Shown: in pieces, positions 5,536-63,272 of the stretch | Numbering within the stretch: the first letter of the stretch is position 1 | Layout of the letters: each line of letters opens with the position of its first letter | Assembly (NCBI GenBank): GCA_022705945.1 | Contig: JAKJDL010000005.1 | Coordinates: 15,825-79,824, forward strand | DNA from: Candidatus Omnitrophota bacterium | GTDB taxonomy: Bacteria > Omnitrophota > Omnitrophia > Omnitrophales > Aquincolibacteriaceae | Reading direction: 5' to 3' | DNA: 64,000 nucleotides | Made by a program: the position numbers and the translations under genes | The notes under the pieces: generated by a model | The model's input: the letters and a program-made list of their open reading frames with translations, nothing else | The model's database searches: none | Told to the model about the DNA's origin: nothing

Positions 5536-6767
5536 ACGCTTCGTTTGAGTTTGTCCTTGTAGCGATTCTTTTCGTGTTTTCGGGATTTTTTTCTTCATCT
5601 GAAACCGCTCTTTTTTCACTTTCGAAACTTGATAAAAGAAAACTCAAAGAACAATATCCGCGTTTCTCAAAATGGGTTCTGGATCTTTTGGAGCAGCCGC
5701 GCAAAACTCTTGGGACCATTCTGATCGGCAACTTGATCGTGAACACACTCGCGACTACCGTCGCGACTTTTTTTGTGGTCGCAAACTGGGGAGAGAAACA
5801 TCTCGGCTTTGCGATGGCGGTTTTTACGGTGCTTTTGATCGTTTTTTGCGAAACGATGCCGAAGATTCTTGCGGTACGGAATAAAGTAAAGCTTTCGATT
5901 CTGGTCGCTTTACCGCTTAGAATTTTTGTTTTTCTTTTCACTCCCCTCCGCCTTTTGATGCGGTACGCAACCGAGAAAATTCTTTCGGTGATTGTTCGCG
6001 AGAAGATAGAGCAATCCGATATGATTTCAGAAAACGAGCTCAAGGTGCTGGTCAAGATCGGAGAGGAGGAGGGGGTTCTGGGGGGGCAGGAACGCCACAT
6101 GATCCAGAAGCTTCTGGATCTCGGTGAGCGGCCGGTCAAAGACATCATGGTACCCCGGACGGATATGGTTGCCCTCGACGTTGAAGACGGTCCGGAAAAA
6201 CACGATGAACTGATCAGAAAAGCGCACCACGAGCATATGCCGGTTTATGAGGGTTCGCTGGATAATGTTGTGGGTGTGGTGATGTCTCTTGACTATCTTT
6301 TGCACGAGCCGAGGCCGGCCGTGAAGGGGATTATGAAAAAACCTCTTTTTATACCGGAAAGTAAAAAGATCGATGATCTCCTGGAAACTTTTAAGGCGAA
6401 CAAGGAGTGGTTTGCGGTTTGCGTGGATGAATACGGGGGGACTGCCGGGATTGTTACCCAGGAGGATGTCCTGGAGGAGATTTTCGGGGAATTCTACGAC
6501 GAATATGAAAAGGTGGAAAATCCGATCCGGCGGCTTGGGGTGGATCTCTATATCGTGGAAGGGAAAGTTCCGCTCCAGGATTTTAATGACTATTTTTTGG
6601 CAAAACTTGAAGCTGAGGAAGCGTCGACGCTTGGCGGATATCTTTTGGAAAAAATGGGAGTTGTGCCCGTTAAAGAGGCGAAGTATGAGACCGAAGATTT
6701 TGAATTTGTGATCCAGTCAATGATCCGGCAGAGGATCCAGCACGTTCTCGTGAGAAAAAAAATATGA
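5532..6767 (+). CDS. CNNM/DUF21-CBS-CorC_HlyC family membrane protein (hemolysin/Mg-Co efflux-like)
   Basis: N-terminal four-TM DUF21 region, tandem CBS domains, and a C-terminal CorC/HlyC transporter-associated domain. Confidence 0.8.
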   Translation: MNASFEFVLVAILFVFSGFFSSSETALFSLSKLDKRKLKEQYPRFSKWVLDLLEQPRKTLGTILIGNLIVNTLATTVATFFVVANWGEKHLGFAMAVFTVLLIVFCETMPKILAVRNKVKLSILVALPLRIFVFLFTPLRLLMRYATEKILSVIVREKIEQSDMISENELKVLVKIGEEEGVLGGQERHMIQKLLDLGERPVKDIMVPRTDMVALDVEDGPEKHDELIRKAHHEHMPVYEGSLDNVVGVVMSLDYLLHEPRPAVKGIMKKPLFIPESKKIDDLLETFKANKEWFAVCVDEYGGTAGIVTQEDVLEEIFGEFYDEYEKVENPIRRLGVDLYIVEGKVPLQDFNDYFLAKLEAEEASTLGGYLLEKMGVVPVKEAKYETEDFEFVIQSMIRQRIQHVLVRKKI

Positions 6768-9833: not shown

Positions 9834-10366
9834 TTCTCGCGCGAGAACCAATGTCCCAGTGTAAGGTTTTTGATGCGGTAAGGACAACAGTGCAGGGTTT
9901 GCATCCCGGGCAGGAGTTTGACAGGGATGCGGCGAGTTATCCTCTTCTTTTCAAGAGTAATGATGAAAAAATCTGGGTGAGAGTCTTTTATCAGCCCATG
10001 CCGGATTATGATATCCGGGAGCTCAAGTACGAGATTGAGAAGTTAAAAAAAATGATAGCGAAAGATTCCCGGTTATATTTTTTCTATCCGAAGCTCGATG
10101 TCAACTTTATGCTGGCTCTCCGTGCAGCATATCACAATCTTGCTTTTTTTGAGTACGGCGGTATTTCCGAGATCGGAAAGGGCAAAGACGGTATCCGGGT
10201 TTGCAGGTGGGTGTCGGCATCTGAAATACCTCATAATGCTTCAATCGAAATTCGACTGCCTGCGGCGATAAAAACCAATCCCGGAGTTTTCCTCAGTTAC
10301 TCCCGGTTGTCTCAAGATGAAGTTACCGGACTGAACGATATTAGCCTGGAACTTGCAAGGTCGTAG
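9830..10366 (+). CDS. Hypothetical protein (third gene of ParA-like operon)
   Basis: 178-aa ORF with an overlapping start and no recognisable motif. Confidence 0.4.
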   Translation: MILAREPMSQCKVFDAVRTTVQGLHPGQEFDRDAASYPLLFKSNDEKIWVRVFYQPMPDYDIRELKYEIEKLKKMIAKDSRLYFFYPKLDVNFMLALRAAYHNLAFFEYGGISEIGKGKDGIRVCRWVSASEIPHNASIEIRLPAAIKTNPGVFLSYSRLSQDEVTGLNDISLELARS

Positions 10367-49742: not shown

Positions 49743-49801
49743 CCTTCCGACGCTGTGTTTCGTCAGAACAGGCCTTTTTCAAATTTAAAAAGCCGGGCGC
49801 T

Positions 49802-49940
49802 ATCCTTCCGCTAATTATGTAATGTGTCTCCGGTGTTCTGGGGTATAATTCCGCTTATGTCGAACGATCAGATCATGCCTTCCGGCTATCGAAAGCTTCT
49901 TGCGGAGATTGTCGGTCTCTATGATAGCGCGCGGCGGACG
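49802..49940 (+). repeat. Left 139-bp direct repeat (attL-like) carrying the promoter and first 41 codons of the DUF1016-nuclease gene
   Basis: Identical to 60429-60567 by direct comparison. Contains TGGGGTATAAT and an ATG at 49857. The downstream reading frame diverges after the repeat and terminates at 49988. Confidence 0.9.
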
Positions 49941-49977
49941 ACGCCGGACCTTCCGGATGACCCGTATTTCTTTTTAA

Positions 49978-50532
49978 AGGTCGTATGAGCATAGCGTTTC
50001 ACAGTTAAAATGCCCCGATCTTTACGCGGTGGCTTGTCTGGTGCTCGATTTTTTGAGTGTCCATCCCTTTAGAGACGGTAATGGCAAGGTGGGCAGGCTC
50101 TTGACGCTTCTTGCGCTCTGCCAGCACGGCTATATGGTCGGCAAACATATCAGCCTTGAACGCGTTATTGAGCAGTCAAAAGAAACATACTACGAAACGC
50201 TCAACAAGAGCTCGCAGAAATGACATGAGGCCAAGCATGATGTCATGCCGTGGTTCAATTATTTCCTCGGGACAGTGCTTGCGGCTTATAAGGAATTTGA
50301 AGAACGGGCAGAACAAATAAAACCCGGAAGGGGCGCCAAGACACAAATAGTAACACAGGTCATTGAGCGACAATCCGGCGAGTTTGCTATTTCTGAGATA
50401 CAACGCGAGTGTCCGGGCGTTAGTCGTCCAATGATTCGAGTGATTCTCGAAGAACTTCGAGCCAAGGGGAAGGTTGAGGTGCTCGGAACCGGTAGAAGTG
50501 CCCGATGGCGTAAACGTGATAATAAGTCGTGA
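49978..50532 (+). pseudogene. Fic/DOC family gene remnant: N-terminally truncated at the repeat boundary, with an in-frame TGA at 50221
   Basis: Fic motif 'HPFRDGNGKVGR' (HPFx[DE]GNG[RK]xxR). Two same-frame ORFs (50029-50223, 50245-50532) separated only by TGA. The upstream frame is open back to 49978, but no N-terminal Fic region is present. Confidence 0.7.
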
Positions 50533-51735: not shown

Positions 51736-52519
51736 AGAATTCCCGGGAGAAAAACTTCTCATTAAAGTTATAGACGATCTGGCTGATTTTTTGCCGTACC
51801 TTGTTCTGGTCGGCGGTTGGGTGCCGTACATTTATGCCAAACACATGTGGAAAGACATCCCCAATATGGCAGTGACTACCGGAGATATTGATTTCGGTGT
51901 CGGAGATCATGATTTTAAAGGGAAGGATACCGTTGCTTCTCGGGTGCAACGATTGGGATATGGCGAGCGTCACGTTTCAATGGACAGATTGATTCCCTTT
52001 GTGCCTATTGTGAAAGATTCATCGGGAGATGCTAAAGCAGAGGTCGAATTTATTACCGATCCCAAGGTTTCCCGGAAAGTCATCAATAAGATCGTTGGTC
52101 AAGAGATCAAGATTAATGAAATCCGGCATTTCAGCCTGTTGCTTGGCTCTGTCATGCCGGTAAAAATGAACGGTAAGAGTATTCAGATACCGACAGAATC
52201 GATGTTTGTTTTCCATAAACTGCTGACGTTTGTGGATCGGGAAAATAAGGCTAAACTCAAGAAGGATCTTTATTACGTTTATTATATGATCAGATTCAGT
52301 CCGACAAAGGCGCAGCTTTGTGACGACGTGGTCGGCCTTATCAAAAAACTTAAAGAAGGCAGACAGGTCAAAGAGAATCTCAAAGAGTATTTTGCCAGCG
52401 TTGATTCGAAGGGGCCATTATTTGTTGAGCAGGAAAACGGCCCGGACGCTTATGTTGCGAACGTAAGAGAAGACGCGTTTGAAAAGTTCGGAGATATTCG
52501 GCGAAGGGTTGAGGAATGA
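51728..52519 (+). CDS. Nucleotidyltransferase-fold protein, AbiEii/DUF1814-like putative toxin
   Basis: 'LVLVGGWVPYIY...TGDIDFGV' fits the minimal nucleotidyltransferase GS/GG...DxD pattern. 263 aa. Translationally coupled to the wHTH gene. Confidence 0.5.
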   Translation: MLKEFPGEKLLIKVIDDLADFLPYLVLVGGWVPYIYAKHMWKDIPNMAVTTGDIDFGVGDHDFKGKDTVASRVQRLGYGERHVSMDRLIPFVPIVKDSSGDAKAEVEFITDPKVSRKVINKIVGQEIKINEIRHFSLLLGSVMPVKMNGKSIQIPTESMFVFHKLLTFVDRENKAKLKKDLYYVYYMIRFSPTKAQLCDDVVGLIKKLKEGRQVKENLKEYFASVDSKGPLFVEQENGPDAYVANVREDAFEKFGDIRRRVEE

Positions 52520-53120
52520 GAGCCTTCGCCATCGGTGACGTCCACGGCGCCTACAAGGCGATGATGCGGTGCTTTGAGCGTTCAAAGTTCGATTATAAGA
52601 AAGACCGCCCGATCGTGATGGGCGATGTTTGCGACGGGTATCCGGATGTCAGACAGCGCATTGATGAGTTATTAAAGATCAAGCATTGTGATCTGATCAT
52701 TGGAAATCATGATATGTGGGCGCTGGACTGGGCCTTGTGAGGCGACACCCCGGAGATATGGAGAAGCCAAGGCGGCGACCGGACAATGGCGTCGTATAAC
52801 GGCGGACCTATGCCGCAGGCGCACATCGACTTCCCAAAAACGGACATCTTTGGTTGGAACTTGGGAATAAACTTTTTGTCCATGCCGGTTTTGTGCCGGA
52901 TTTGCCATTGGAGCAAGATAGCGTTCAGGTACTTGTGTGGGACAGGTATTTACTCAAAGACGCGTGGGAAGCGGATAATTATAGACGGGAAGCGCAGATC
53001 ATAAAATATGACGACATTTTATCGGACACACGACAACAGAGCTTTATAGGACGCTTGAGCCGCTTCATGTTTGCAACGTGTGGGATTTGGACACCGGCGC
53101 CGGTTGGTCAGGCAAGCTGA
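52516..53120 (+). pseudogene. Fragmented calcineurin-like metallophosphoesterase (Ser/Thr phosphatase/ApaH-like)
   Basis: 'AIGDVHG...GDVCDGYP...GNHDMW' (motifs GDxHG, GDxxDRG-like, GNHD/E) in 52516-52740. The C-terminal 'LFVHAGF' piece is in another frame (52854-53120). At least two frameshifts or stops. Confidence 0.6.
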
Positions 53121-53353
53121 CGATTATGATGGATATTGATACAAAGGAATACTGGCAATCGGAGTTATCAAAAGATTTATACGGCGGGACACCGGGCAAT
53201 TTAGCTGGGACGAAATAATATGAACTACTGGTGGACATCGGGTGCGTTCACGAGAAATATAAGATCAAGCGAGAGGCCGGATGATACTTGTTCTTGAGTG
53301 AACGCCGGACACCGTCCGGCAACAGAAACCATAAGTCATGAAAGAGGTTTTAT

Positions 53354-54976
53354 ATGCAATGGATAGCGCCTGCAGAAAAGAATGAAGCGAACGATCTTCT
53401 GGAAAAACGGCTGTGGGACGCCGCCGATCAGCTCCGGGCTAACTCCGGCCTGACTTCAGCCCAATACTCCCAGCCCGTCCTTGGGCTTATTTTCCTACGG
53501 TTTACCGACAGCCGGTTCAAGGTCCAGCAGGCCAAGATAAAAAAAGCAGGTAAGACCTCCCGGCGCGGATCCCGCGTCGAAGATTCTGCCGCCTATCACG
53601 CCGAAGGCATCCTGTATCTGGCGCCCGGAGCCAGGTTCGACGAGCTCCTTTCATACCCTGAAGGCGGTAAAGGCGGAAAGTCGCTCGGCCAGGCGATCAA
53701 CGAAGCCATGAGGAATATCGAGCGTGATAACCCTCAACTCGCCGGTGTCCTTCCCAAGACCTACGAAACCTTCGAGGCTCGGATCCTTGCGGAGCTTCTT
53801 AAAGTTATTTCCACGATTCCGTCTGACCTTGAAGGCGACTCCTTCGGAAAGATCTACGAATACTTTCTGGGTGAATTTGCCATGACCGAAGGACAAGCCG
53901 GAGGAGAGTTCTACACGCCGACGGCTATTGTCCGGTTGATCGTCGAGATTCTCGAACCGTTCCATGGGCTTATCCTTGATCCTGCCTGCGGATCGGGCGG
54001 TATGTTCGTCCAAAGCGCTCGGTTTGTGTCAGAACACCGGAAGAATCCTTCGAGCGAAATCAGCATCCACGGACAGGAGAAAGTAGACGCCACAGTCCGC
54101 CTCTGCAAGATGAACCTCGCGGCGCACGGTCTTGAAGGAGACATCAAGCAGGCCATTACCTATTACGATGACCTCCACAAGAGCACAGGCCGGTTCGACT
54201 TCGTTCTCGCCAATCCTCCGTTTAACGTCAATGCCGTGGACAAGGAACGTCTCAAAAGTGACGTCGGCCCGGGCAAACGCTTCCCGTTCGGGTTGCCACG
54301 CACAGACAACGCGAACTATCTCTGGATCCAGCTGTTTTATTCGGCGCTGAACAGTAAGGGCCGCGCCGGTTTTGTGATGGCTAACTCCGCGTCTGATGCG
54401 CGCTCTTCCGAACAGGAGCTTCGCAAAAAGCTCATCGAAGACCGTGCTGTTGATGTGGTGATCGCTGTCGGGCCGAATATGTTCTACACCGTGACGCTCC
54501 CGTGCACGCTCTGGTTTTTGGATAAAGGGAAGAAGAAAACACCGCGAGCGGATACGGTTTTGTTCGTTGATGCGCGGCAAATTTATCGACAAATATCAAA
54601 GGCTCAAAGAGACTGGACTCCGGCGCAGATCAGTTTTATCTCCAATATTGTGCGGCTCTATCGTGAAGAAGAACCCGACTTTACCCTTGGCAGGGATGAA
54701 GCGGCCAAGCGGGTTTCCGAAGCCTTCGGAAAGAAACCCCAATACAAGGACATCCCAGGTCTTTGCAAGGTTGTGACGATCAAGCAAATTGAAAAACAGG
54801 GCTGGTCGCTCAATCCCGGCCGCTACGTTGGTGTTGCGCCCGGTGGAACCCTCAGCAACGAGGACTTCAAGGAGCAGTTTGAAACTCTGAACGAAGAACT
54901 TGAAACCTTGAATGTTCAGGCCCGCAAACTTGAGCAAACCATCGCTCGCAACGTGACGGAGATTCTAGAGGCATGA
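53354..54976 (+). CDS. hsdM: Type I restriction-modification system, DNA methyltransferase subunit
   Basis: HsdM N-terminal '[13 protein letters not shown]...VLGLIFLRF'. SAM motif '[11 protein letters not shown]'. Catalytic 'NPPF'. 540 aa. Confidence 0.9.
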
Positions 54977-56175
54977 CGAAGGTCGAGCTCCGCACAGTTC
55001 GAATTGGTGACTTGGGCCGCGTCATCACCGGCAAGACACCACCGAGCGCCTACCCAGAACTGTTCGGGGAGGAATTTCCGTTTCTTACCCCTACAGACAT
55101 TGACGGTGTTGCGCGTTACATCGAACCAGAACGCTTCCTATCGCTAAAGGGATACGATCACCAGCAACAACTGCTTCTTCCGCCGCGCTCTGTCTGTGTT
55201 GTTTGTATTGGCGCTACGATCGGCAAAGTCTGCATGACCAACAAGCCATCGTTTACAAACCAGCAAATCAACTCCGTCGTTGTGAACGAAAGGGAACATG
55301 ACCCCATTTTTGTTTACCACCTTCTTACGACCTTGCGCGATGAGTTGAAATTAAATGCTGGTGGCGCTGCGACGCCGATCATTAACAAGACAGCTTTTTC
55401 AGAGATCGAAATCAATGTCCCGACATTGCTGGAGCAGCAGCGGATTGCGAACATTTTGTCGGCTTACGACGAACTGATCGAGAACAGTCAGCGGCGCATC
55501 CGGATATTGGAGACGATGGCCCGTGCTCTTTACCGTGAATGGTTCGTCGATTTTCGTTTTCCCGGCCACGAAAAGCATCCCCTTGTTGCCTCATCCATTG
55601 GCAATATCCCCAAAGGCTGGGAGGTCAAAAAACTCAAGGATGTCGGTCGCCTCACAATGGGTCAGTCGCCCAAGTCAGAGTTCTATAACGAGACGGGAGA
55701 AGGTCAGCCATTCCATCAGGGGGTGACCGATTTTGGTGATCGCTTTCCAACCGACCGCTTGTTTTGCGCCATCGAGGGGCGCGTTGCTGAAGCTGGCGAC
55801 ATTCTGTTTAGTGTTCGTGCTCCCGTCGGACGCATGAACATTGCTGATAAGAAAATCATCATTGGTCGTGGCTTGTCCGCTATCCGAGATAACAACGGCC
55901 ATCAATCCTTTCTCTGGGAGCAGTTGCGCAACCGTTTTGCTAAAGAAGACATGATGGGTAACGGTGCAATCTTTGCAGCAGTAACAAAAGATGATATGCA
56001 AGGCATCGAGTTGCTTTGTCCGCCGCAATCACTCGTTGTGGATGCCGAGAAGCACCTTGTTTCGATTCACGAAAAAGTTAGCATTCTCACTCGCCAAATT
56101 CAAAACCTCCGCCGCACCCGCGATTTTCTTTTGCCGCGATTAATGTCGGGACAATGTAATCTTCAGGAGGTTTAA
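54973..56175 (+). CDS. hsdS: Type I restriction-modification system, specificity subunit (two TRDs)
   Basis: Overlaps the hsdM stop. Duplicated TRD architecture with conserved central and C-terminal coiled-coil repeats ('[29 protein letters not shown]', '[22 protein letters not shown]'). Confidence 0.85.
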
Positions 56176-56315
56176 GTCGTGGCTCTTCCGCACAGATTCA
56201 TTTTGATGGCGAGTTTTATTAACGAGGGAGCTTTTGAGGAATCGATTGAACAAAGTCTGACCCCCAATCGCGGGGGTGAAAGGAATACCAGGGGAAATTG
56301 AAAAGAGGAAATGAA

Positions 56316-56951
56316 ATGGCTTATATTTTTCTTGATGAATCGGGCGACCTAGGTTTTGATTTTACGAAAAAAGGAACTACCCAGTATTTTGTAATCACAC
56401 TGCTCTTTGCGGATCACAAACGACCTATCGAAAAATGTGTCCGCACGGTTCACGCGCACTTGCGCAAGAGATTCAGGCGAATAGGAGGCGTTCTCCACGC
56501 GTGCAAGGAGGAAGACGTTACACGGCAGAGATTGCTACGATGCCTGTCGCAAAAGAATTGTGCCGTTATGACAATTTATCTCAACAAGAAGAGAGTTTAC
56601 ACGCGCCTACAGGATGAGAAAGCGGTCCTTTACAATTATGTGACGAACATATTGCTTGACCGGATTTTTACGAAGAAATTGGTTTCCTCCGACGACATTC
56701 ATCTGATTGCCTCCAAACGGGAAACCAACAAATTCCTTAACGAAAATTTCAGGTCCTATTTGAGACGGCAAATGATTGTAAATCATACTCGCAAAATTGC
56801 GGTTGAAATTCGGACACCGGCTGAAGAAAAAGCCTTGCAAGCGGTGGATTTTGTGAGTTGGGCAATATTCCGAAAACCGGAATGGCGGGATGATGTTTAT
56901 TACAACACGATCAGGGGAAAGATTGTGGAGGAGAATCCGTTATTCCCCTGA
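56316..56951 (+). CDS. DUF3800-family protein inserted between hsdS and hsdR
   Basis: 'MAYIFLDESGDLGFDF' is the DUF3800 hallmark. RBS AAGAGGAAA. ORF open from 56298. Confidence 0.65.
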   Translation: MAYIFLDESGDLGFDFTKKGTTQYFVITLLFADHKRPIEKCVRTVHAHLRKRFRRIGGVLHACKEEDVTRQRLLRCLSQKNCAVMTIYLNKKRVYTRLQDEKAVLYNYVTNILLDRIFTKKLVSSDDIHLIASKRETNKFLNENFRSYLRRQMIVNHTRKIAVEIRTPAEEKALQAVDFVSWAIFRKPEWRDDVYYNTIRGKIVEENPLFP

Positions 56952-57160
56952 AAATGGTAAAGCCTCATTCGCTGTTTACGAGGAACCCTGCGGAACCCCA
57001 CGAATGAGGACTTACTTACCGCACAAACTATAGCATTTTATTCATGATGATGCAATGCGCTATTTGATTAAAAATTACAATGTAAACCTAAAAAAGCTCA
57101 AAAAAAGCAAAAAAAAGCTTTAACTAATTTAGACTCAATGAGTTACTATTTGACGGTTAT

Positions 57161-60100
57161 TTGATTGCTGGGAGACAACGAATGCCCCATGATTATTCCG
57201 AAGACCAACTTGTAGAGCAGCCGGCGATACGGCTCTTTAAGGAGCTTGACTGGGACACGACTTCAGCTCTTGAGGAAGTCCTTGGTCCAGGTGGGACGCT
57301 GGATCGTGAAACGAAGTCAGAAGTTGTTCTCATCTCCCGGTTGCGCGCAGTACTTGTCCGACTGAATCCCGCGTTACCACCTGAAGCCATCACAAGCGCC
57401 ATTGATGAACTGATTCGCAACCGTTCGGCGACGAGTCTTGCCGGCGCTAACCGCGAAGTCTCTGAGCTTCTCCGGGAAGGTGTAAAGGTTTCGGTTTCTG
57501 ACCGTGAGCACGGCGGGCAGAAGACGGAGAGAGTTCGGATCATTGATTGGGATAATCCCGCGTCCAACGACTTCCTTCTTGTCAGTCAGTTCACTGTAAC
57601 CGGGCCGTTATATACCTGCCGGCCGGATCTGGTGGGATTTGTGAACGGGATTCCGTTTGTGGTGATCGAACTGAAGAAGCCCGGCGTTCCTGTCCAGCAG
57701 GGGTTTGACGATAATCTGACCAGCTATAAACATCCGCAAAACGGTATTCCGCAACTCTTCTGGTATAACGCGCTCCTTATCGTCTCAAACGGCACGGACA
57801 GCCGTGTCGGGTCTGTTACGGCCGGATGGGATCATTTCGGGGAATGGAAACGCGTGAAAAGCGAGGCCGAACCACGCACGGTATCGCTTGAAAAGATGAT
57901 ACGCGGGACCTGCGCCAAAGAACGGCTGTTGGATCTAGCTGAAAACTTCACCGTCTTTTCGGAACAAAGAGCCGGGCTTTTGAAAATCTTGGCGCGAAAC
58001 CATCAGTATCTTGGTGTTAATAATGTGTTGTCGGCTCTTCAGGATGTCAAACGAAAGCACAGTCAGCTTGGTGTGTTCTGGCACACGCAAGGTTCGGGCA
58101 AGAGTTTTTCCATGGTCTATTTTTCTCAGAAGGTTCTGCGGAAGATACAGGGGAACTGGACTTTTGTCATAGTGACTGACCGGACGGAACTGGACGATCA
58201 GATCTACCGGACTTTCAAGGCGTGCGGTGCTACGAGCGAACATTGTCAGGCCGAAAGCTCCGCACATTTAAGACAGCTTCTTGGCGAGAATCACCGGTAT
58301 GTTTTTACTCTCATCCACAAATTCCGAACCGAGAACGGGACTCCTCATCCGATATTGAGCGATCGCAATGACATCATCGTGTTGACCGACGAAGCCCACA
58401 GGAGTCAATACGACACGCTGGCGCTCAACATGCGGACGGCTTTGCCCAACGCTTTGTTTCTTGCCTTTACCGGCACGCCGCTCATTAAGGGCGAAGAAGA
58501 ACGGACCCGTGAAGTCTTTGGTGATTATATTTCGGTCTATGACTTCCAGCAGTCGGTTGAGGACGGTGCGACTGTTCCTCTGTTCTATGAAAACAGGACG
58601 CCCGAATTAAGACTGAAGAACCCGGATCTGAATGACCAGATTTATGATCTGATCGATGAAGCGGGGCTGGATCCGGCTCACGAAGAACGGTTGGAGCAAG
58701 AGCTGGGACGGCAGTATCACATTATTACCCGCGATGACCGTCTGGATACGATTGCCCAGGACATTGTCCGAAACTTTCTGGGGCGGGGGTTTATCGGTAA
58801 GGCGATGGTCGTATCGATCGATAAGGCAACGGCGCTCCGGATGCATGACAAGGTCCGGAAGTATTGGGCGGAAGATCTCAAGAGAACACAGAAGGAATGG
58901 GATGAGATCACATCTTCCGGAGACAAGTATGATTCGGAAAAGAGGCGTGTCCTTGAAGAACGGTTGAAGCTGCTTAAAGAGACCGACATGGCCGTTGTGG
59001 TCTCGCCGGGGCAGAATGAGATCGAACAAATGAGAGCTCTCGGGCTTGATATCGTTCCGCACCGGGAGCGGATGAACAGAGAGCCTCTGGATGAGAAATT
59101 TAAGGACCCGAAAGATCCATTCCGGATCGTGTTCCTTTGCGCGATGTGGCTCACCGGTTTTGATGCGGAGTGTTGCTCGACTATTTATCTGGACAAGCCG
59201 ATGCGGAACCACACTTTGATGCAGACCATCGCCCGGGCGAACCGTGTTTTTCCCGGTAAATACAACGGTTTGGTCGTGGACTATGCGAATGTTTTTGCGT
59301 CCCTGGAGCGGGCGCTTGCGATTTACGGTAAGAGGAAAGGTGGAGAAAGGCCGGTCCGAGACAAGAAAAAGCTCGTTGAAAATCTCCGGAAGGCGGTTGA
59401 GGATGCGGTGAAGTTCTGTGATAAACACGGGGTCAGTATCAAGTCGATCGAAAAGATACCGGCCGGAACGATGGACAGGCTTACCGCTATTGCTGAAGCG
59501 GTTAACCCGCTCATTTCGCCGGATAAGGTGCGAAAGGACTTTTTCGCCGCAGAGAAGCTGGCAATGACACTTTATAACGCGGTTAAACCGGATCCGGTGG
59601 TCCTGGAATTTTCTTCCAGAATTAGCTGTCTTGCGACCATTGCGAATGTTATCCGGGAACGGACCGGCGGAAATGTTCCTGTCGATATCACGGCCATTAT
59701 GGGGGATATTAACCGCCTGCTTGATGAGTCGATTGAAGCTGAGGGCTTCAGGATCAGGGAAAAGACAGGTAGCGGGATCGAAGGCGTTATTGATCTCAGC
59801 CGGATTGATTTCGAGGCCCTGGCCAGGCAGTTCAAGAAATCCAAGTGCAAGAATCTGGGGCTGGAGTCGCTAAAGGCGGCGATCCGCGCCCAGCTGGAAC
59901 GTCTGATCCGGCTTAACAGGAACCGTGCTGATTATCTGGCTAAGTTCGAGGAGCTGATCGAGTCTTACAATGCGGGGAGCCGGAATATCGAGGAGTTGTT
60001 CAGGGAACTTCTGGTTTTCAGCCGGTCGTTGAATGAGGAAGAGAAGAGGCATGTTCGGGAAAACCTGAGCGAAGAAGAACTGACGATTTTTGATGTTCTG

Positions 60101-60379
60101 GTCCGCCCCGGTCCGGATCTTTCATCCGACGAGCGGGAGCAGGTCAAGAAGGTAGCCAGGGAGCTCCTTCAAAGGCTTCGGTCTTTATTTGTGATCAACT
60201 GGCGGGAAAGGGTTCAAACCCGAGCGCGGGTGGTGGAAGCCATCAAGGATGAACTGGATCGACTCCCGGGTGGATACACGCAAGACCTTTACCAGCTAAA
60301 ATGTTCAGCCGTGTTTGAGCATGTCTACGAGAGTTACTTTGGCGAGGGTAATAGCGTTTTTGTATCTTCGCAATCCTGA
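57161..60379 (+). CDS. hsdR: Type I restriction enzyme, R (endonuclease/translocase) subunit
   Basis: HsdR N-terminal nuclease region. SF2 helicase motifs ('HTQGSGKS', 'VLTDEAHRSQY', 'FTGTPL'). 1072 aa. Alternative ATG at 57182. Confidence 0.9.
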   Translation: MIAGRQRMPHDYSEDQLVEQPAIRLFKELDWDTTSALEEVLGPGGTLDRETKSEVVLISRLRAVLVRLNPALPPEAITSAIDELIRNRSATSLAGANREVSELLREGVKVSVSDREHGGQKTERVRIIDWDNPASNDFLLVSQFTVTGPLYTCRPDLVGFVNGIPFVVIELKKPGVPVQQGFDDNLTSYKHPQNGIPQLFWYNALLIVSNGTDSRVGSVTAGWDHFGEWKRVKSEAEPRTVSLEKMIRGTCAKERLLDLAENFTVFSEQRAGLLKILARNHQYLGVNNVLSALQDVKRKHSQLGVFWHTQGSGKSFSMVYFSQKVLRKIQGNWTFVIVTDRTELDDQIYRTFKACGATSEHCQAESSAHLRQLLGENHRYVFTLIHKFRTENGTPHPILSDRNDIIVLTDEAHRSQYDTLALNMRTALPNALFLAFTGTPLIKGEEERTREVFGDYISVYDFQQSVEDGATVPLFYENRTPELRLKNPDLNDQIYDLIDEAGLDPAHEERLEQELGRQYHIITRDDRLDTIAQDIVRNFLGRGFIGKAMVVSIDKATALRMHDKVRKYWAEDLKRTQKEWDEITSSGDKYDSEKRRVLEERLKLLKETDMAVVVSPGQNEIEQMRALGLDIVPHRERMNREPLDEKFKDPKDPFRIVFLCAMWLTGFDAECCSTIYLDKPMRNHTLMQTIARANRVFPGKYNGLVVDYANVFASLERALAIYGKRKGGERPVRDKKKLVENLRKAVEDAVKFCDKHGVSIKSIEKIPAGTMDRLTAIAEAVNPLISPDKVRKDFFAAEKLAMTLYNAVKPDPVVLEFSSRISCLATIANVIRERTGGNVPVDITAIMGDINRLLDESIEAEGFRIREKTGSGIEGVIDLSRIDFEALARQFKKSKCKNLGLESLKAAIRAQLERLIRLNRNRADYLAKFEELIESYNAGSRNIEELFRELLVFSRSLNEEEKRHVRENLSEEELTIFDVLVRPGPDLSSDEREQVKKVARELLQRLRSLFVINWRERVQTRARVVEAIKDELDRLPGGYTQDLYQLKCSAVFEHVYESYFGEGNSVFVSSQS

Positions 60380-60428
60380 GTGTACCGGGATCTATTCTCA
60401 AAGCCGCAAATTTCAAAAGCAAGATACC

Positions 60429-60567
60429 ATCCTTCCGCTAATTATGTAATGTGTCTCCGGTGTTCTGGGGTATAATTCCGCTTATGTCGAACGATCAGAT
60501 CATGCCTTCCGGCTATCGAAAGCTTCTTGCGGAGATTGTCGGTCTCTATGATAGCGCGCGGCGGACG
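60429..60567 (+). repeat. Right 139-bp direct repeat (attR-like), forming the 5' end of the intact DUF1016-nuclease gene
   Basis: Identical to 49802-49940. Confidence 0.9.
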
Positions 60568-61482
60568 CTGGTTCACGCGCACTGGGAGATCGGAAAGCGG
60601 ATTGTCCGGATTGAGCAGGACGGCGCCGCCCGCGCGGCTTACGGGGCGGGACTGCTTGTGAGGCTCTCTGAGGACCTGACCCGGGAAAGAGGAGTCGGGT
60701 TTTCGCCGAGCAGTATCAAGCGGTTCCGGCAGTTTTATCTGTTGCACCCAAAAGGTGCGCCGGCGCACCTTTTGACCTGGGCGCATCACGCGGAGCTTCT
60801 CACGGTCCGTGACCGAAAGACCCGGTTACTGCTCGAAAAACGCGCGGATGAGCAGGGGATGACCCGTGATGAACTGCGAAAGTTGATCCGCGAAAGGCGC
60901 GGAATTGGAAAAGGCGATCGGGGTGAGGTCGCTGACGGGACGCCCCTTGTCCCGAAAAAGGGACCGCTCGGCCTTTATCAGATCAGAAGCGGAGCTGACA
61001 TCGGGTGGCCGCGGTCCGGCGTGCTTGTTTTTGACCACGGGTTTCGTTTTTATGATGCGCTGGACGACACGCAGGCGCAAGGTCTCGCGGCGGGTGATTT
61101 TGTGGAGGAGCGGGACGGTAAGCTCGTGAAGGCGGATCAAGCGAAGCGGCCCGGTTATACCTACACGGCTTATTTGCAGGAGGTGATCGACGGGGACACG
61201 CTCCGGGTCGCGCTGGATGCGGGGCTTGGAGGAATTGCCCGTCAAAAGCTGCGCTTGCGCGGGATCGACTGTCCCGAGATCGATACGCCGGAAGGGAAGG
61301 CCGCGAAAGTGTTTGTCGAGACTGTCCTGGAGGAAATTTCCTCGATGACCGTTTACACCTCAAGGAATGCCACTCACGACCGCTATGAGGCGGATGTGTT
61401 TTTTAATGACCAAGACGGCCGGGAAGTTTTCCTGAACGGTCTTTTGCTGGACACGCGACACGCCGTCCGGATGAAGAGGTAA
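60484..61482 (+). CDS. DUF1016 (YhcG-like) N-terminal domain fused to staphylococcal-nuclease (SNase/thermonuclease) domain
   Basis: N-terminus 'YRKLLAEIVGLYDSARRTLVHAHWEIGKRIV...SIKRFRQFY' matches the DUF1016 N-terminal pattern. C-terminus 'VIDGDTLRV...RLRGIDCPE...GKAAKVFVE' matches SNase. The TATAAT lies only about 8 nt upstream of the ATG (possible leaderless transcript). ORF open from 60451 (GTG). Confidence 0.7.
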   Translation: MSNDQIMPSGYRKLLAEIVGLYDSARRTLVHAHWEIGKRIVRIEQDGAARAAYGAGLLVRLSEDLTRERGVGFSPSSIKRFRQFYLLHPKGAPAHLLTWAHHAELLTVRDRKTRLLLEKRADEQGMTRDELRKLIRERRGIGKGDRGEVADGTPLVPKKGPLGLYQIRSGADIGWPRSGVLVFDHGFRFYDALDDTQAQGLAAGDFVEERDGKLVKADQAKRPGYTYTAYLQEVIDGDTLRVALDAGLGGIARQKLRLRGIDCPEIDTPEGKAAKVFVETVLEEISSMTVYTSRNATHDRYEADVFFNDQDGREVFLNGLLLDTRHAVRMKR

Positions 61483-61483
61483 G

Positions 61484-61600
61484 ATGAAAGTGCTGTCAAA
61501 GACTTTCAGCTGCCCTGATTCCTGTTTATCTCAAGGGAGATCAGGACTGCAAAAGTCCCGGTAAATGAATGAAAGTATTATTGAAGACTTTCGGCTGGCC
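61484..61600 (+). promoter_or_regulatory. Two copies of an imperfect palindromic about 33-bp motif (TGAAAGT-N10-ACTTTCA) upstream of the DUF4062 gene
   Basis: ATGAAAGTGCTGTCAAAGACTTTCAGCTGCCC (61484-61516) and ATGAAAGTATTATTGAAGACTTTCGGCTGGCC (61566-61598). Confidence 0.5.
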
Positions 61601-61718
61601 ATTGGCCCCGCGTTTACACCCGCCTTTGCGCCATACTTTTTAAGCTCTACCCGTGAGCAGTTTGGTATAATCCGCAAAGGTTCGTGGCGTTTTTAATCGT
61701 GTGGCAGGGGAAGGCAAA

Positions 61719-63272
61719 ATGACCAAGCGCAAGATATTCATCAGCAGCGTTCAGAAGGAGTTCAAGGATGAGCGGGCCGCCTTGAGGGATTTTATCTCCG
61801 GCGATCCCTTGTGCAGGCGCTACTTTGACTGTTTTCTTTTCGAAGATATTCCCGCCCAGGACCGCAGGCCGGACGCCGTCTATATCGATGAAGTCAGGGA
61901 TTGCGATATCTATGTGTGTCTTCTCGGCAATGAATACGGAGCTGAAGATGCCCGCGGATCTTCGGCTACGGAGCGGGAATTCAGGGAGGCGACGGAGCGC
62001 GGAAAGACGCGGCTTCTTTTTGTCAAAAACACGACTGAAAAAGACCGTCACCCTAAAACAGCTAAATTGATCAACAGAGCCGGCAACGAGGTTATTCGCC
62101 GGAGGTTTTCCAACGCCCCGGAATTGATCTCGCAACTGTATGCAGCCCTTGTGCAGTATTTGGAGGAGCAGTGTCTTTTGCAGACCGTTCCGTTCGATGC
62201 TGCTTCCTGCCGCAATGCTGTTTTGGGCGACATTGACGAATCTGCCGTTGGGAATTTTCTTGAGGCTGCCCGGGCCGAACGCAAGTTCCCCTTGCCGCCA
62301 CGCACTTCGGCGAAAAAGCTTTTCACTCATTTGAACCTATTCAATAACGGCAAGCTGACGCATGCCGCGGTCCTGTTGTTCTGCAGGAATCCCCAGAAGT
62401 TCCGCGCCCTGTTATGTGCCGAGGTTAAATGTATGCATTTTCACGGGACCGAGGTGCAAAAGCCGATCCCTTCGTACCAAACCTACCGGGGAACATTGTT
62501 CGAACAGGTTGATGAAGCTGTTGATTTCGTGCTCGGTAAACTGGATCGCACGGTCACGCCCAGCAAAACCGCTGTTGCGAGCGATGTATCGTATGAGATA
62601 CCCAAAATGGTGATCCGCGAAGCAATCGTTAACGCGGTCGCGCATCGGGATTACACATCCAACGCAGGCGTTCAGGTCATGCTGTTTGCGGATCGACTTG
62701 AGATCTGGAACCCAGGGGCACTTCCTGAAGGGATGACGCCGGCGACCCTACGGAAAGCCCATGCCTCTGTGCCGAGAAACCCGCTGATCAGCGATCCGCT
62801 TTTCTGGGCGAGATACATTGAACGGGCGGGAACCGGAACGATCGACATGATCGCTCTGTGCAAGAAAATGAAGATCCCGGAGCCTTCGTTTCAGCAGCGG
62901 GGAGGTCAGTTCGTCCTGATAATCCGTCGCAAGAAGAAGGCCCCTCCGAAAGCCCGGCCCATCACCCACGAGGTTCAGGGACCAAGTCGGCACCAAGTCG
63001 GCACCAAGTTGGCACTAAGTCAGCACCAAGTTGAGATATTGCATAAGTGTCAGGCTGAGAGCAGGATAGCCGATCTCATGAAGATCACTGGGCGGACAGA
63101 TCGCACCAAGTTCAGGCATCAGGTGCTTAGTCCTCTCGCAGATGCGGGATTGATCGAAATGACGGTTCCTGACAAACCCCAAAGCAGTAATCAGAAGTAC
63201 CGGTTGACGGAAAAAGGGGTTGCGTATTTACAAGGGCGCAAAAGGGCTGCGTGCTTCACGGCAAAGTTGTGA
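61719..63272 (+). CDS. DUF4062 - AlbA_2 (Schlafen-like) - HATPase_c_4 - wHTH protein
   Basis: N-terminus 'KIFISSVQKEFKDERAALRDFI...CDIYVCLLGNEYG' (DUF4062 pattern). Central AlbA_2-like region. 'IREAIVNAVAHRDY' (HATPase_c_4). C-terminal wHTH. RBS GGGGAAGG. ORF open from 61701. Confidence 0.65.
   Translation: MTKRKIFISSVQKEFKDERAALRDFISGDPLCRRYFDCFLFEDIPAQDRRPDAVYIDEVRDCDIYVCLLGNEYGAEDARGSSATEREFREATERGKTRLLFVKNTTEKDRHPKTAKLINRAGNEVIRRRFSNAPELISQLYAALVQYLEEQCLLQTVPFDAASCRNAVLGDIDESAVGNFLEAARAERKFPLPPRTSAKKLFTHLNLFNNGKLTHAAVLLFCRNPQKFRALLCAEVKCMHFHGTEVQKPIPSYQTYRGTLFEQVDEAVDFVLGKLDRTVTPSKTAVASDVSYEIPKMVIREAIVNAVAHRDYTSNAGVQVMLFADRLEIWNPGALPEGMTPATLRKAHASVPRNPLISDPLFWARYIERAGTGTIDMIALCKKMKIPEPSFQQRGGQFVLIIRRKKKAPPKARPITHEVQGPSRHQVGTKLALSQHQVEILHKCQAESRIADLMKITGRTDRTKFRHQVLSPLADAGLIEMTVPDKPQSSNQKYRLTEKGVAYLQGRKRAACFTAKL

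Follow-up and report, generated by a model that had tools for sequence, protein, structure and literature searches.

A candidate DUF4062 NADase gene and a YhcG-like nuclease gene in an Omnitrophota defence island: probably independent modules that meet at putative att-like palindromes

Two genes with defence-type domain architectures lie next to each other on the forward strand of a Candidatus Omnitrophota contig (JAKJDL010000005.1), separated by 236 nt that contain a duplicated palindromic motif. An earlier note, made from the sequence alone, read them as a two-gene nuclease/sensor system, with the palindromes as operators for the winged helix of the second protein. The question is whether these genes form a functional pair, or whether they were brought together by the exchange of unrelated segments. 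Coordinates below refer to the window, the 64,000-nt stretch of DNA that was analysed. The location is a hypervariable island hotspot between a MATE transporter gene and hcp; the defence island around the two genes also contains AbiEi_2/NTP_transf_8, type I restriction-modification (R-M) and DUF3800 genes. On balance we favour a reading in which gene 1 (YhcG-like) and gene 2 (a predicted NADase) are independent, separately exchangeable defence-type modules, and the palindromes are att-like.

Gene 1 (60484..61482, + strand; 332 aa) has a DUF1016_N domain (nt ~60553–60894; 80.3 bits with Pfam), in agreement with the YhcG/DUF1016-type N-terminus proposed in the earlier note, followed by a small β domain (aa ~160–222) and a staphylococcal nuclease (SNase) domain (aa ~225–332; nt ~61156–61479). 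Pfam gave no match in gene 1 to the PD-(D/E)XK nuclease YhcG_C (PF06250). The SNase profile PF00565 scores 12.7 bits on gene 1 itself against a gathering score of 21, and is present in the precomputed annotation of most members of the family. The C-terminus has an OB-like SNase fold, and D238, R257, D262 and E265 align with D21, R35, D40 and E43 of SNase and are (near-)invariant in the family, with Cys263 at the position of SNase T41; the SNase assignment of the earlier note is therefore sound for fold and catalytic set, whilst the profile score falls below threshold. An invariant arginine, R300, may correspond to R87, an equivalence obtained only in the family-consensus register (DKYDRYLADV versus DKYGRGLAYI). 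Gene 1 resembles YhcG/DUF1016 proteins (COG4804; PDC-S02) in having an N-terminal helical DUF1016_N domain followed by a C-terminal nuclease, in its paralogue expansion and in its association with type I R-M; it differs in that the β domain and SNase fold replace the usual PD-(D/E)XK nuclease. DUF1016_N would act as a helical targeting domain and SNase as the nuclease part of a protein whose role is uncertain. Members of the DUF1016–SNase sub-family come mainly from Omnitrophota, Planctomycetales and Leptospiraceae.

The 5′ end of gene 1 lies in a 161-nt direct repeat (left copy, 49780..49940; right copy, 60407..60567; both + strand), the last 139 nt of which are identical between the copies. 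The right copy supplies the promoter region and first 28 codons of the intact gene, as the earlier note had claimed in describing gene 1 as reconstituted at the right repeat; the left copy is followed by a core-like sequence, ACCTTCCGGATGACC (49948–49962), and then by a Fic remnant. A TATAAT −10-like box (60471..60476, + strand) can be read in the sequence of the right copy, though it was not called by a consensus promoter scan; since it lies only 7 nt upstream of the ATG, the gene 1 mRNA may be leaderless or have a very short leader.

Gene 1 is probably antiviral. An alternative, which we regard as somewhat doubtful, is that it has no part in defence and encodes a nuclease that is selfish, tied to a mobile or other element (perhaps through the junctions described below), or of a housekeeping kind. 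The gene is multi-copy (at least 11 genomes have 2–5 copies among the top 80 loci), its homologues have heterogeneous, mostly housekeeping neighbours, junctions hold fragments of it (the 161-nt 5′ repeat in the window; a 60-nt 3′ fragment in locus L082), and YhcG paralogue expansions are known in Rickettsia. Against this, 24 models of the PADLOC candidate PDC-S02 match gene 1 across the N-terminal domain, the SNase catalytic set is invariant and DUF1016 genes are enriched beside R-M genes. Moreover, relative to locus L165, a block comprising hsdM, hsdS, DUF3800, hsdR and gene 1 (53187–61572) has been swapped as a unit; in this strain gene 1 goes with the type I R-M segment rather than with gene 2.

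Palindrome 1 (61485..61508, + strand; TGAAAGT GCTGTCAAAG ACTTTCA) begins 2 nt past the gene 1 stop codon. Palindrome 2 (61570..61593, + strand; TGAAAGT ATTATTGAAG ACTTTCG) starts 85 nt after the start of the first, from which it is separated by a 61-nt spacer (61509..61569, + strand) with an internal imperfect hairpin (CCCTGAT...ATCAGG). The duplication of TGAAAGT-N10-ACTTTCA noted earlier is real and non-random (3 occurrences at ≤2 mismatches versus 0.25 expected, with 0 of 100 shuffles reaching 3); the second copy is inexact, with one mismatch. The last 60 nt of gene 1, both palindromes and the spacer recur as a unit between MATE and Fic in sister strains, and 61422–61605 aligns with positions 6237–6420 of L082 at 92% identity (blastn).

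Comparison with the closest strains places the breakpoints at these palindromes: homology on the gene 1 side stops at palindrome 1, and on the gene 2 side it begins at palindrome 2. Gene 1 keeps palindrome 1 with it, including in strains that lack gene 2; of palindrome 2, gene 2 takes along the right arm alone, the left arm and spacer being part of the gene 1 side. Homology among five gene 2 contexts begins at 61572–61596, and in all five the upstream DNA meets gene 2 at AC(T/C)TTCGG. In locus L001, miaB is intact and carries a natural copy of the site (AAAGT-N10-ACTTTCGG / AAAGT-N10-ACTTTCGGATG); in L082, identity to miaB runs up to the core and then gives way to an island with HTH_17, a DUF4062–HATPase_c_4 paralogue and type I R-M. 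This empty-versus-occupied comparison covers miaB only, with one end of the island seen. The site pattern occurs in 9 of 189 loci, all of this lineage and always in the same orientation; it was found in none of the 180 loci from outside the lineage. The junctions in L081 and L167 lack the left palindrome arm. Because the breakpoints sit there, and because a sister-strain island is inserted exactly at the miaB site, the palindromes look like att-like junctions of the form AAAGT-N10-ACTTT(Y)GG, as read from a small number of junctions within a single lineage.

The right arm of palindrome 2 abuts a relic of the 3′ end of a large serine recombinase gene (61591..61656, + strand; tblastn with the L167 recombinase), which encodes SAGHWPRVYTRLCAILFKLYP and a stop, some 20 codons. 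The same tail ends the recombinase ORFs of L167 and L168 and the recombinase remnant of L081; upstream of this common tail the L168 recombinase is only 31% identical. Serine recombinase genes adjoin the junction in L167 and L168, and none is present in this part of the window. The modules would have been joined by site-specific recombination at the palindromes, with serine recombinases as the likely agents because the 3′ end of their gene overlaps the site.

Islands that accrete in tandem at att sites, cassette arrays of the integron kind and SSV1-type integrases with the att site inside their own gene are all known. The Omnitrophota junctions resemble such systems in the directly oriented short palindromic sites at every module border, in insertion at a natural site copy in miaB and in a recombinase ORF that receives its last ~20 codons from the target side. 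They differ in that this segment of the window holds no recombinase and the site-flanked module of L081 only recombinase remnants; the site is also unlike attC or dif, and no excision products were observed, recombination being the proposed mechanism.

An alternative, which we consider unlikely, is that the palindromes act in cis at the RNA or DNA level, as 3′ stem-loops, as weak terminators or as sites for a host or Fic-associated regulator, and coincide with module borders only because such borders fall in intergenic DNA. The position of palindrome 1 directly after a stop codon would suit this explanation, as would the conservation of the palindrome 1–hairpin–palindrome 2 block in two contexts and the arrangement in L081 and L082, where a promoter follows the element, preceded by a clear terminator hairpin that ends in a T-run. 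The stems, however, are AU-rich and of only 7 bp, with 10-nt loops and no U-tract following; the predicted RNA fold of the palindrome/spacer region is not significant (z = −1.34), and no Rfam family matches that region. Nor does it readily account for breakpoints that fall inside the site, at the right arm, in five independent contexts, for a site within the miaB coding sequence that is the exact point of island insertion, or for the adjoining recombinase-gene relic. We retain the reading of the palindromes as att-like junctions.

Gene 2 (61719..63272, + strand; 517 aa) lies in an ORF that opens at a GTG (61701), although its start is likely the ATG at 61719, behind GGGGAAGG. A putative extended −10-like box, TGGTATAAT (61663..61671, + strand), lies in its own promoter region, and the ~145 nt that precede the ATG are conserved across all gene 2 contexts aligned. 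The protein comprises an N-terminal DUF4062/NIR TIR-like domain (aa ~1–150; PF13271, 79.1 bits against a Pfam cutoff of 24.7), a middle domain (aa ~155–310), HATPase_c_4 (aa 317–402, nt 62667–62924; 72.2 bits) and, beyond a linker, a Fic-like_C winged helix (aa 438–497, nt 63030–63209; 53.5 bits), the latter two also above their Pfam cutoffs. Within the linker lie ~5 tandem copies of an 11-nt unit, GGCACCAAGTY (62978..63032, + strand), read in all three frames as PSRHQVGTKLALSQHQVE. The DUF4062, HATPase_c_4 and winged-helix assignments of the earlier note are borne out; its AlbA_2 domain is not, the middle region giving no match at E ≤ 10 and SLFN_AlbA_2 (PF04326) being found in 0 of 120 homologues of gene 2.

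The AlphaFold2 model of gene 2 (pLDDT 80) matches DIP2311 (PDB 3lmm; Foldseek E = 1e-13) and the TIR domain of AbTir (7uxu; TMt 0.73); the N-terminal domain has a TIR/NDT-like α/β fold, with BcmB and NDT enzymes also among its Foldseek matches. An N-box-like pair (E301/N305) and two glycines (G371/G373) are invariant in the family alignment. The middle domain, HATPase_c_4 and winged helix are homologous to those of COG2865/DIP2311 (phmmer, 4.5e-5), whose Schlafen AlbA_2 N-terminus is absent from gene 2, with DUF4062 present instead. Relatives of the gene 2 body (aa ~157–494; 25–35% identical) in loci L171–L176 have N-terminal SLFN_AlbA_2; that in L171 even has the Fic-like_C tail of the gene 2 type (AlbA_2–HATPase_c_4–Fic-like_C). 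In these alignments, DUF4062 occupies the slot of SLFN_AlbA_2 and is a replacement, not an addition.

DUF4062/NIR was recognised as an immune NADase domain only in 2026, with few auxiliary (sensor) types tested; experiments have demonstrated anti-phage NADase defence by KpSwz (Swarozyc), PsAvs2, Vulcan, Vesta and Eva01 (Evangelion), with catalytic glutamates at KpSwz E97, Eva01 E87 and PsAvs2 E108 (10.64898/2026.05.01.722283, 10.64898/2026.06.25.731849, 10.64898/2026.09.04.749371). E87 of gene 2 (nt 61977–61979) aligns with the E97A position of KpSwz (the Ala of TEKAF in structure 10wc) and is invariant in 30 aligned family sequences from bacteria and archaea; F7 and Q12 are likewise invariant and match motifs of Eva01. 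By analogy, gene 2 is best read as a candidate abortive-infection system of the single-gene DUF4062/NIR NADase type, in which the sensor body is of the Schlafen family. We infer its NADase activity and defence role from these features: on sensing infection, the C-terminal body (middle domain, GHKL-like HATPase_c_4 and winged helix, the same as in Schlafen-like AlbA_2 proteins) would set the N-terminal NADase free, and NAD+ depletion would then abort the infection, as in Swarozyc, Evangelion and Vulcan.

With those three systems gene 2 shares the N-terminal DUF4062 TIR-like domain and its equivalent glutamate, together with the Phe and Gln motifs conserved near the N-terminus. As in those systems, one polypeptide also carries a C-terminal auxiliary region, there is no fixed partner gene, and the gene occurs in defence islands and on plasmids. 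The auxiliary region itself differs, consisting in gene 2 of ~365 aa made up of the middle domain, GHKL-like HATPase_c_4 and Fic-like_C. Gene 2 lacks the AUX portal sensor of KpSwz (the 10wc profile match covers only positions 3–160, the rest matching DIP2311 and Fic-like_C) and has no counterpart to the HEAT repeats of Vulcan; the AUX of Eva01 is short by the preprint's description, whereas the gene 2 body spans 365 aa, although Evangelion is similarly a single gene without a conserved partner. The text of the three 2026 preprints makes no mention of a DUF4062–HATPase_c_4 architecture. Proteins of the type DUF4062–HATPase_c_4–wHTH form at least 5,596 clusters at 90% identity in bacteria and archaea, including on Legionella conjugative plasmids; gene 2 represents a very widespread predicted sensor type, distinct from the auxiliary types tested.

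That gene 2 instead acts chiefly in transcriptional regulation or as a nucleoid-associated ATP-binding protein (COG2865-like), with a non-immune DUF4062, seems improbable. Source annotations of its homologues often read ‘predicted HTH transcriptional regulator’, or else ‘ATP-binding protein’, the protein ends in a winged helix, and Pfam PF22168 labels DIP2311, the nearest homologue with a solved structure, as a transcriptional regulator. Weighing against this are the invariance of the catalytic Glu and TIR-like pocket motifs across bacteria and archaea, the occurrence of homologues in R-M/defence loci and on plasmids, their ~55% identity across phyla, which points to horizontal spread, and the finding that all DUF4062 proteins tested to date are NADases.

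Genes 1 and 2 show no conserved co-occurrence across the loci compared, an outcome that the earlier note had itself named as refuting the pair. Relatives of gene 2 were found within 8 kb of 0 of 80 gene 1 loci in GTDB genomes (74 of the 80 with callable neighbours on each side), and a DUF1016–SNase gene at 0 of 80 gene 2 metagenome loci, although in one of these a canonical YhcG lies at a distance of 1.3 kb; since many of the metagenome loci are short, the effective denominators are below 80. The neighbours of gene 2 homologues are heterogeneous and R-M-rich (ResIII 8, HsdS 5, N6_N4_Mtase 4, HSDR_N 3), and a 49%-identical homologue stands alone beside rep/par genes on a conjugative Legionella plasmid. 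Identical gene 2 copies are found on 14 contigs, always with hcp downstream; upstream lies Fic, a 591-aa serine recombinase, a divergent recombinase, or gene 1. Conversely, where gene 1 is 94–95% identical at the nucleotide level in other strains, a lipoprotein gene and miaB take the downstream position. In L168 (CAZDVO01), a recombinase precedes a gene 2 that is 99.8% identical, and the gene 1 paralogues elsewhere in that MAG are only 39–59% identical.

The two-gene nuclease/sensor system, with the palindromes as operators bound by the gene 2 winged helix, is accordingly largely refuted and very improbable: in its favour are adjacency on one strand, the defence-type architecture of both genes (itself upheld by the island context, the PDC-S02 match and the anti-phage NADase record of DUF4062), the non-random motif, and a gene 1 orthologue ~1.5 kb from a DUF4062–HATPase_c_4 paralogue (31% identical to gene 2) in L082/L083, whereas the nearest strains split the genes exactly at the palindromes, which belong to different modules, no palindrome lies upstream of the gene 2 orthologues in L167, L168 and L081, palindrome 1 stays beside gene 1 in strains without gene 2, and each gene has its own −10-like box, the region upstream of gene 2 being kept whatever precedes it. 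A false two-gene system is thereby removed from consideration, and the rereading of an operator-like palindrome as a recombination seam advises caution when mining defence islands of uncultured phyla.

With the genes regarded as independent modules, a broader picture can be sketched, which we put forward tentatively and rate as a little short of an even prospect. DUF4062–HATPase_c_4–wHTH proteins would constitute a large single-gene NADase abortive-infection family, built on one sensor chassis, the prokaryotic Schlafen-family body, whose N-terminal effector slot could be filled by a Schlafen AlbA_2 nuclease or by a TIR-like NADase. In the Omnitrophota lineage, genes of this family would move between AAAGT-N10-ACTTT sites as cassettes, mostly without an intact recombinase of their own, carried by serine recombinases that have the crossover site in their own 3′ end; the conserved 11-nt-phased linker repeat would be a joint for swapping the C-terminal winged helix. 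Through its homology to Schlafen-like AlbA_2 proteins, gene 2 connects two classes of effector with a single sensor chassis, and this could help explain what the HATPase_c_4–wHTH body of prokaryotic Schlafen relatives senses. The plasmid homologues in Legionella pneumophila, a cultured organism, make the proposal for gene 2 testable.

As a separate observation, the recurrence of a gene 1 orthologue near a DUF4062–HATPase_c_4 paralogue in L082/L083 could hint at a functional link, though it stems from a separate insertion into miaB.

The DUF1016_N–SNase gene (gene 1; 60484–61482) and the DUF4062 gene downstream (gene 2; ATG at 61719, ending at 63272; 517 aa) lie on the same strand, 236 nt apart, and were proposed in the earlier note as a possible two-gene defence pair. 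Co-occurrence across genomes does not bear this out. When GTDB was scanned with the gene 1 family, each species being represented by a single genome, nothing resembling gene 2 was present within 8 kb in the best 80 of 326 gene 1 loci; a metagenome scan with gene 2 returned at least 590 relatives, and among the best 80 of these loci none has a DUF1016–SNase gene, with a canonical YhcG (DUF1016-type) gene located 1.3 kb away in one. The immediate neighbours of gene 2 homologues are varied and rich in restriction–modification (R–M) genes; those of gene 1 homologues are also varied, and often housekeeping.

We regard the closest strains, as judged from sequence comparison, as decisive against the pair, since they part the two genes at the palindromes lying between them. 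In three comparison loci with gene 1 at ~95% nucleotide identity (L001, L082 and L083) the match to the window ends at 61506, inside palindrome 1, beyond which they run into a lipoprotein gene and then miaB. In contigs encoding a protein-identical gene 2 the match begins at 61572–61596, at palindrome 2; hcp is always downstream, whilst what lies upstream varies between Fic and two distinct recombinases, one of them a serine recombinase of 591 aa. Relative to another locus (L165), the hsdM–hsdS–DUF3800–hsdR–gene 1 block (53187–61572) has been exchanged as one unit, so gene 1 in this strain goes with the type I R–M system rather than with gene 2. The sole observation favouring a functional link is a 31%-identical DUF4062–HATPase_c_4 paralogue ~1.5 kb from gene 1 in L082 and L083, but this paralogue came by a separate insertion into miaB, and the pair interpretation is not supported.

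The intergenic motif TGAAAGT-N10-ACTTTCA, previously noted as two copies, is exact at 61485–61508 (palindrome 1), but its second copy at 61570–61593 (palindrome 2) carries one mismatch; its occurrence is well above chance. Five distinct upstream contexts meet the gene 2 module at the same AC(T/C)TTCGG core. The segment immediately downstream (61591–61656) encodes SAGHWPRVYTRLCAILFKLYP and a stop codon; serine-recombinase ORFs in L167, L168 and a remnant in L081 end in this same C-terminal tail, while sharing just 31% identity elsewhere. In the intact miaB of L001, codons 9–17 naturally read AAAGT-N10-ACTTTCGGATG; in L082 the identity extends to the core of this site, after which the sequence switches to an island which begins with a conserved element and carries HTH_17, the DUF4062–HATPase_c_4 paralogue and a type I R–M system. 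The same island end is present at another locus in L081. The site AAAGT-N10-ACTTTYGG occurs in nine of the 189 fetched loci, all from this lineage and all in one orientation. From the shared core, recombinase tail, miaB insertion and lineage-bound pattern we infer that the palindromes are att-like junction sites, a reading built on a small number of junctions and with no recombinase gene in this region. The seams are a curiosity confined to this lineage; relaxed AAAGT-N8-12-ACTTT matches outside the lineage are unrelated, several lying within coding sequence. Alignment identifies the L082 site at 9950 as the insertion junction rather than a chance occurrence within remnant miaB sequence. The 13-nt core GACYTTYGGMTGR was rejected as a window-wide repeat, its only exact match being at palindrome 2 and its count not above chance.

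The other role proposed for the palindromes, an operator bound by the winged helix of gene 2, is not supported, because they are split between modules: palindrome 1 remains with gene 1 in loci without gene 2, of palindrome 2 just the right arm accompanies gene 2 across contexts, and in three gene 2 contexts the palindrome is absent altogether. A structured RNA, hairpin or terminator spanning both palindromes is not favoured (fold z=-1.34, not significant; no U-tract; no Rfam family). A scan for consensus sigma-70 promoters and terminators made no call at the two gene starts or the palindromes, the -10 boxes of both genes being read by eye only.

A direct repeat (49780–49940 and 60407–60567; last 139 nt identical) brackets a 10.6-kb island containing a Fic remnant, AbiEi_2/NTP_transf_8, a Metallophos fragment, hsdM, hsdS, DUF3800 and hsdR, and no integrase. 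The left repeat copy retains only the 5′ end of gene 1, as a dead stub, and is followed immediately on its inner side (49948–49962) by ACCTTCCGGATGACC, which resembles the junction core. In the sister strains, a unit between MATE and Fic (6237–6420 in L082/L083; 1061–1162 in L001) joins the final 60 nt of gene 1 to both palindromes and the spacer between them; a complete gene 1 is also present downstream. Gene 1 stubs thus recur directly after the MATE gene, as a 5′ stub in the window and a 3′ stub in the sister strains. The island's left edge carries what looks like a decayed Fic gene: a Fic-motif remnant lacking the N-terminal half (HPFRDGNGK; 50062–50085), followed by a 95-aa ORF (50245–50532) that matches the DIP2311-like_C winged helix (PF22168) just below cutoff. 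The calcineurin-like phosphoesterase gene (52516–53120) is split into short ORFs of 74, 72 and 88 aa and is therefore probably a pseudogene; the 74-aa fragment is also present in L165. Within the type I R–M operon, the DUF3800 gene (56298–56951) separates hsdS from hsdR.

The domain list earlier given for gene 2 stands for DUF4062 and HATPase_c_4, which together with a Fic-like_C winged helix score above the Pfam cutoffs; AlbA_2 drops out, being found neither in the middle region by a permissive Pfam scan nor in any of 120 homologues. Experiments reported in 2026 established DUF4062 as a TIR-like NADase through which Swarozyc, Evangelion, Avs2, Vulcan and Vesta abort infection, with a catalytic Glu essential in each (2026 preprints 10.64898/2026.05.01.722283, 10.64898/2026.06.25.731849, 10.64898/2026.09.04.749371). 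E87 of gene 2 is invariant across 30 aligned sequences and aligns with the E97A position of the Swarozyc protein structure (KpSwz); the N-terminal Phe and Gln motifs are also kept, and the structure model matches TIR and NDT folds. The body (the remaining 365 residues) matches DIP2311 (3lmm) and GHKL ATPases. In proteins with a related body the N-terminal domain is SLFN_AlbA_2, and one of them also has the Fic-like_C tail; in gene 2, therefore, DUF4062 has taken the place of AlbA_2 as the effector on a common sensor chassis. The body would probably sense an infection cue, which may be a nucleic acid bound by the winged helix together with ATP bound by the GHKL-like domain, and then switch on NAD+ hydrolysis. 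Gene 2 is of the same kind as the DUF4062 defence proteins first described in 2026, but a different variant; its architecture is unmentioned in the supplements of those preprints, and literature searches for HATPase_c_4, COG2865 and PNTD domains found nothing mechanistic. On conjugative plasmids of Legionella, full-length homologues occur as solitary genes, among them WP_106315017.1. A phage origin was rejected, 2.9 M viral contigs holding just one full-length relative of gene 2 and none of gene 1.

Residues 162–387 of gene 2 match PADLOC Argonaute-associated 'Aga_SIR2-PNTD1-PNTD2' models (E 1.5e-15) and a pAgo model (3.6e-12), so pAgo systems may contain this same body joined to a SIR2 NADase; no Argonaute gene lies near gene 2. 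The linker contains, at 62978–63032, about five tandem 11-nt units (GGCACCAAGTY) encoding PSRHQVGTKLALSQHQVE across all three frames, with a period-11 self-identity of 37/44 compared with 18–20 at other periods. Period-11 identity is also raised (28–40/44) at the same position in homologues (L081, L086–L096 and L148) of only ~50–58% protein identity, so conservation extends to the DNA periodicity itself. Six proteins with 64–69% overall identity (P0125, P0127–P0129, P0132 and P0134) differ completely in their C-terminal winged helix, which follows a repetitive QVEAQVEA-type linker; the divergence spans gene 2 residues ~405–517 (alignment columns ~400–500) and suggests that C-terminal domains are swapped at the repeat linker. 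DUF4062–HATPase_c_4 paralogues in L081 (5294–9530) and L082 (10309–12020) lack the Fic-like_C winged helix, and a small HTH_17 gene lies directly before each; in L081 two DUF4062–HATPase_c_4 genes stand in tandem with serine-recombinase remnants between.

The N-terminal domain of gene 1 matches the PADLOC candidate PDC-S02. The protein resembles YhcG but has SNase where YhcG has its PD-(D/E)XK nuclease, making it a member of a known candidate family with an exchanged nuclease. The enrichment of DUF1016 next to R–M genes makes a defence role plausible, but it is not secure given the multi-copy distribution and housekeeping neighbours. Many MAGs have several DUF1016_N–SNase genes; at least 11 genomes contribute two to five copies each to the best 80 loci (L001–L080), including Leptospiraceae UBA2033 with five and binchicken_co117_427 with three. 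Leptospira plasmids also carry full-length relatives.
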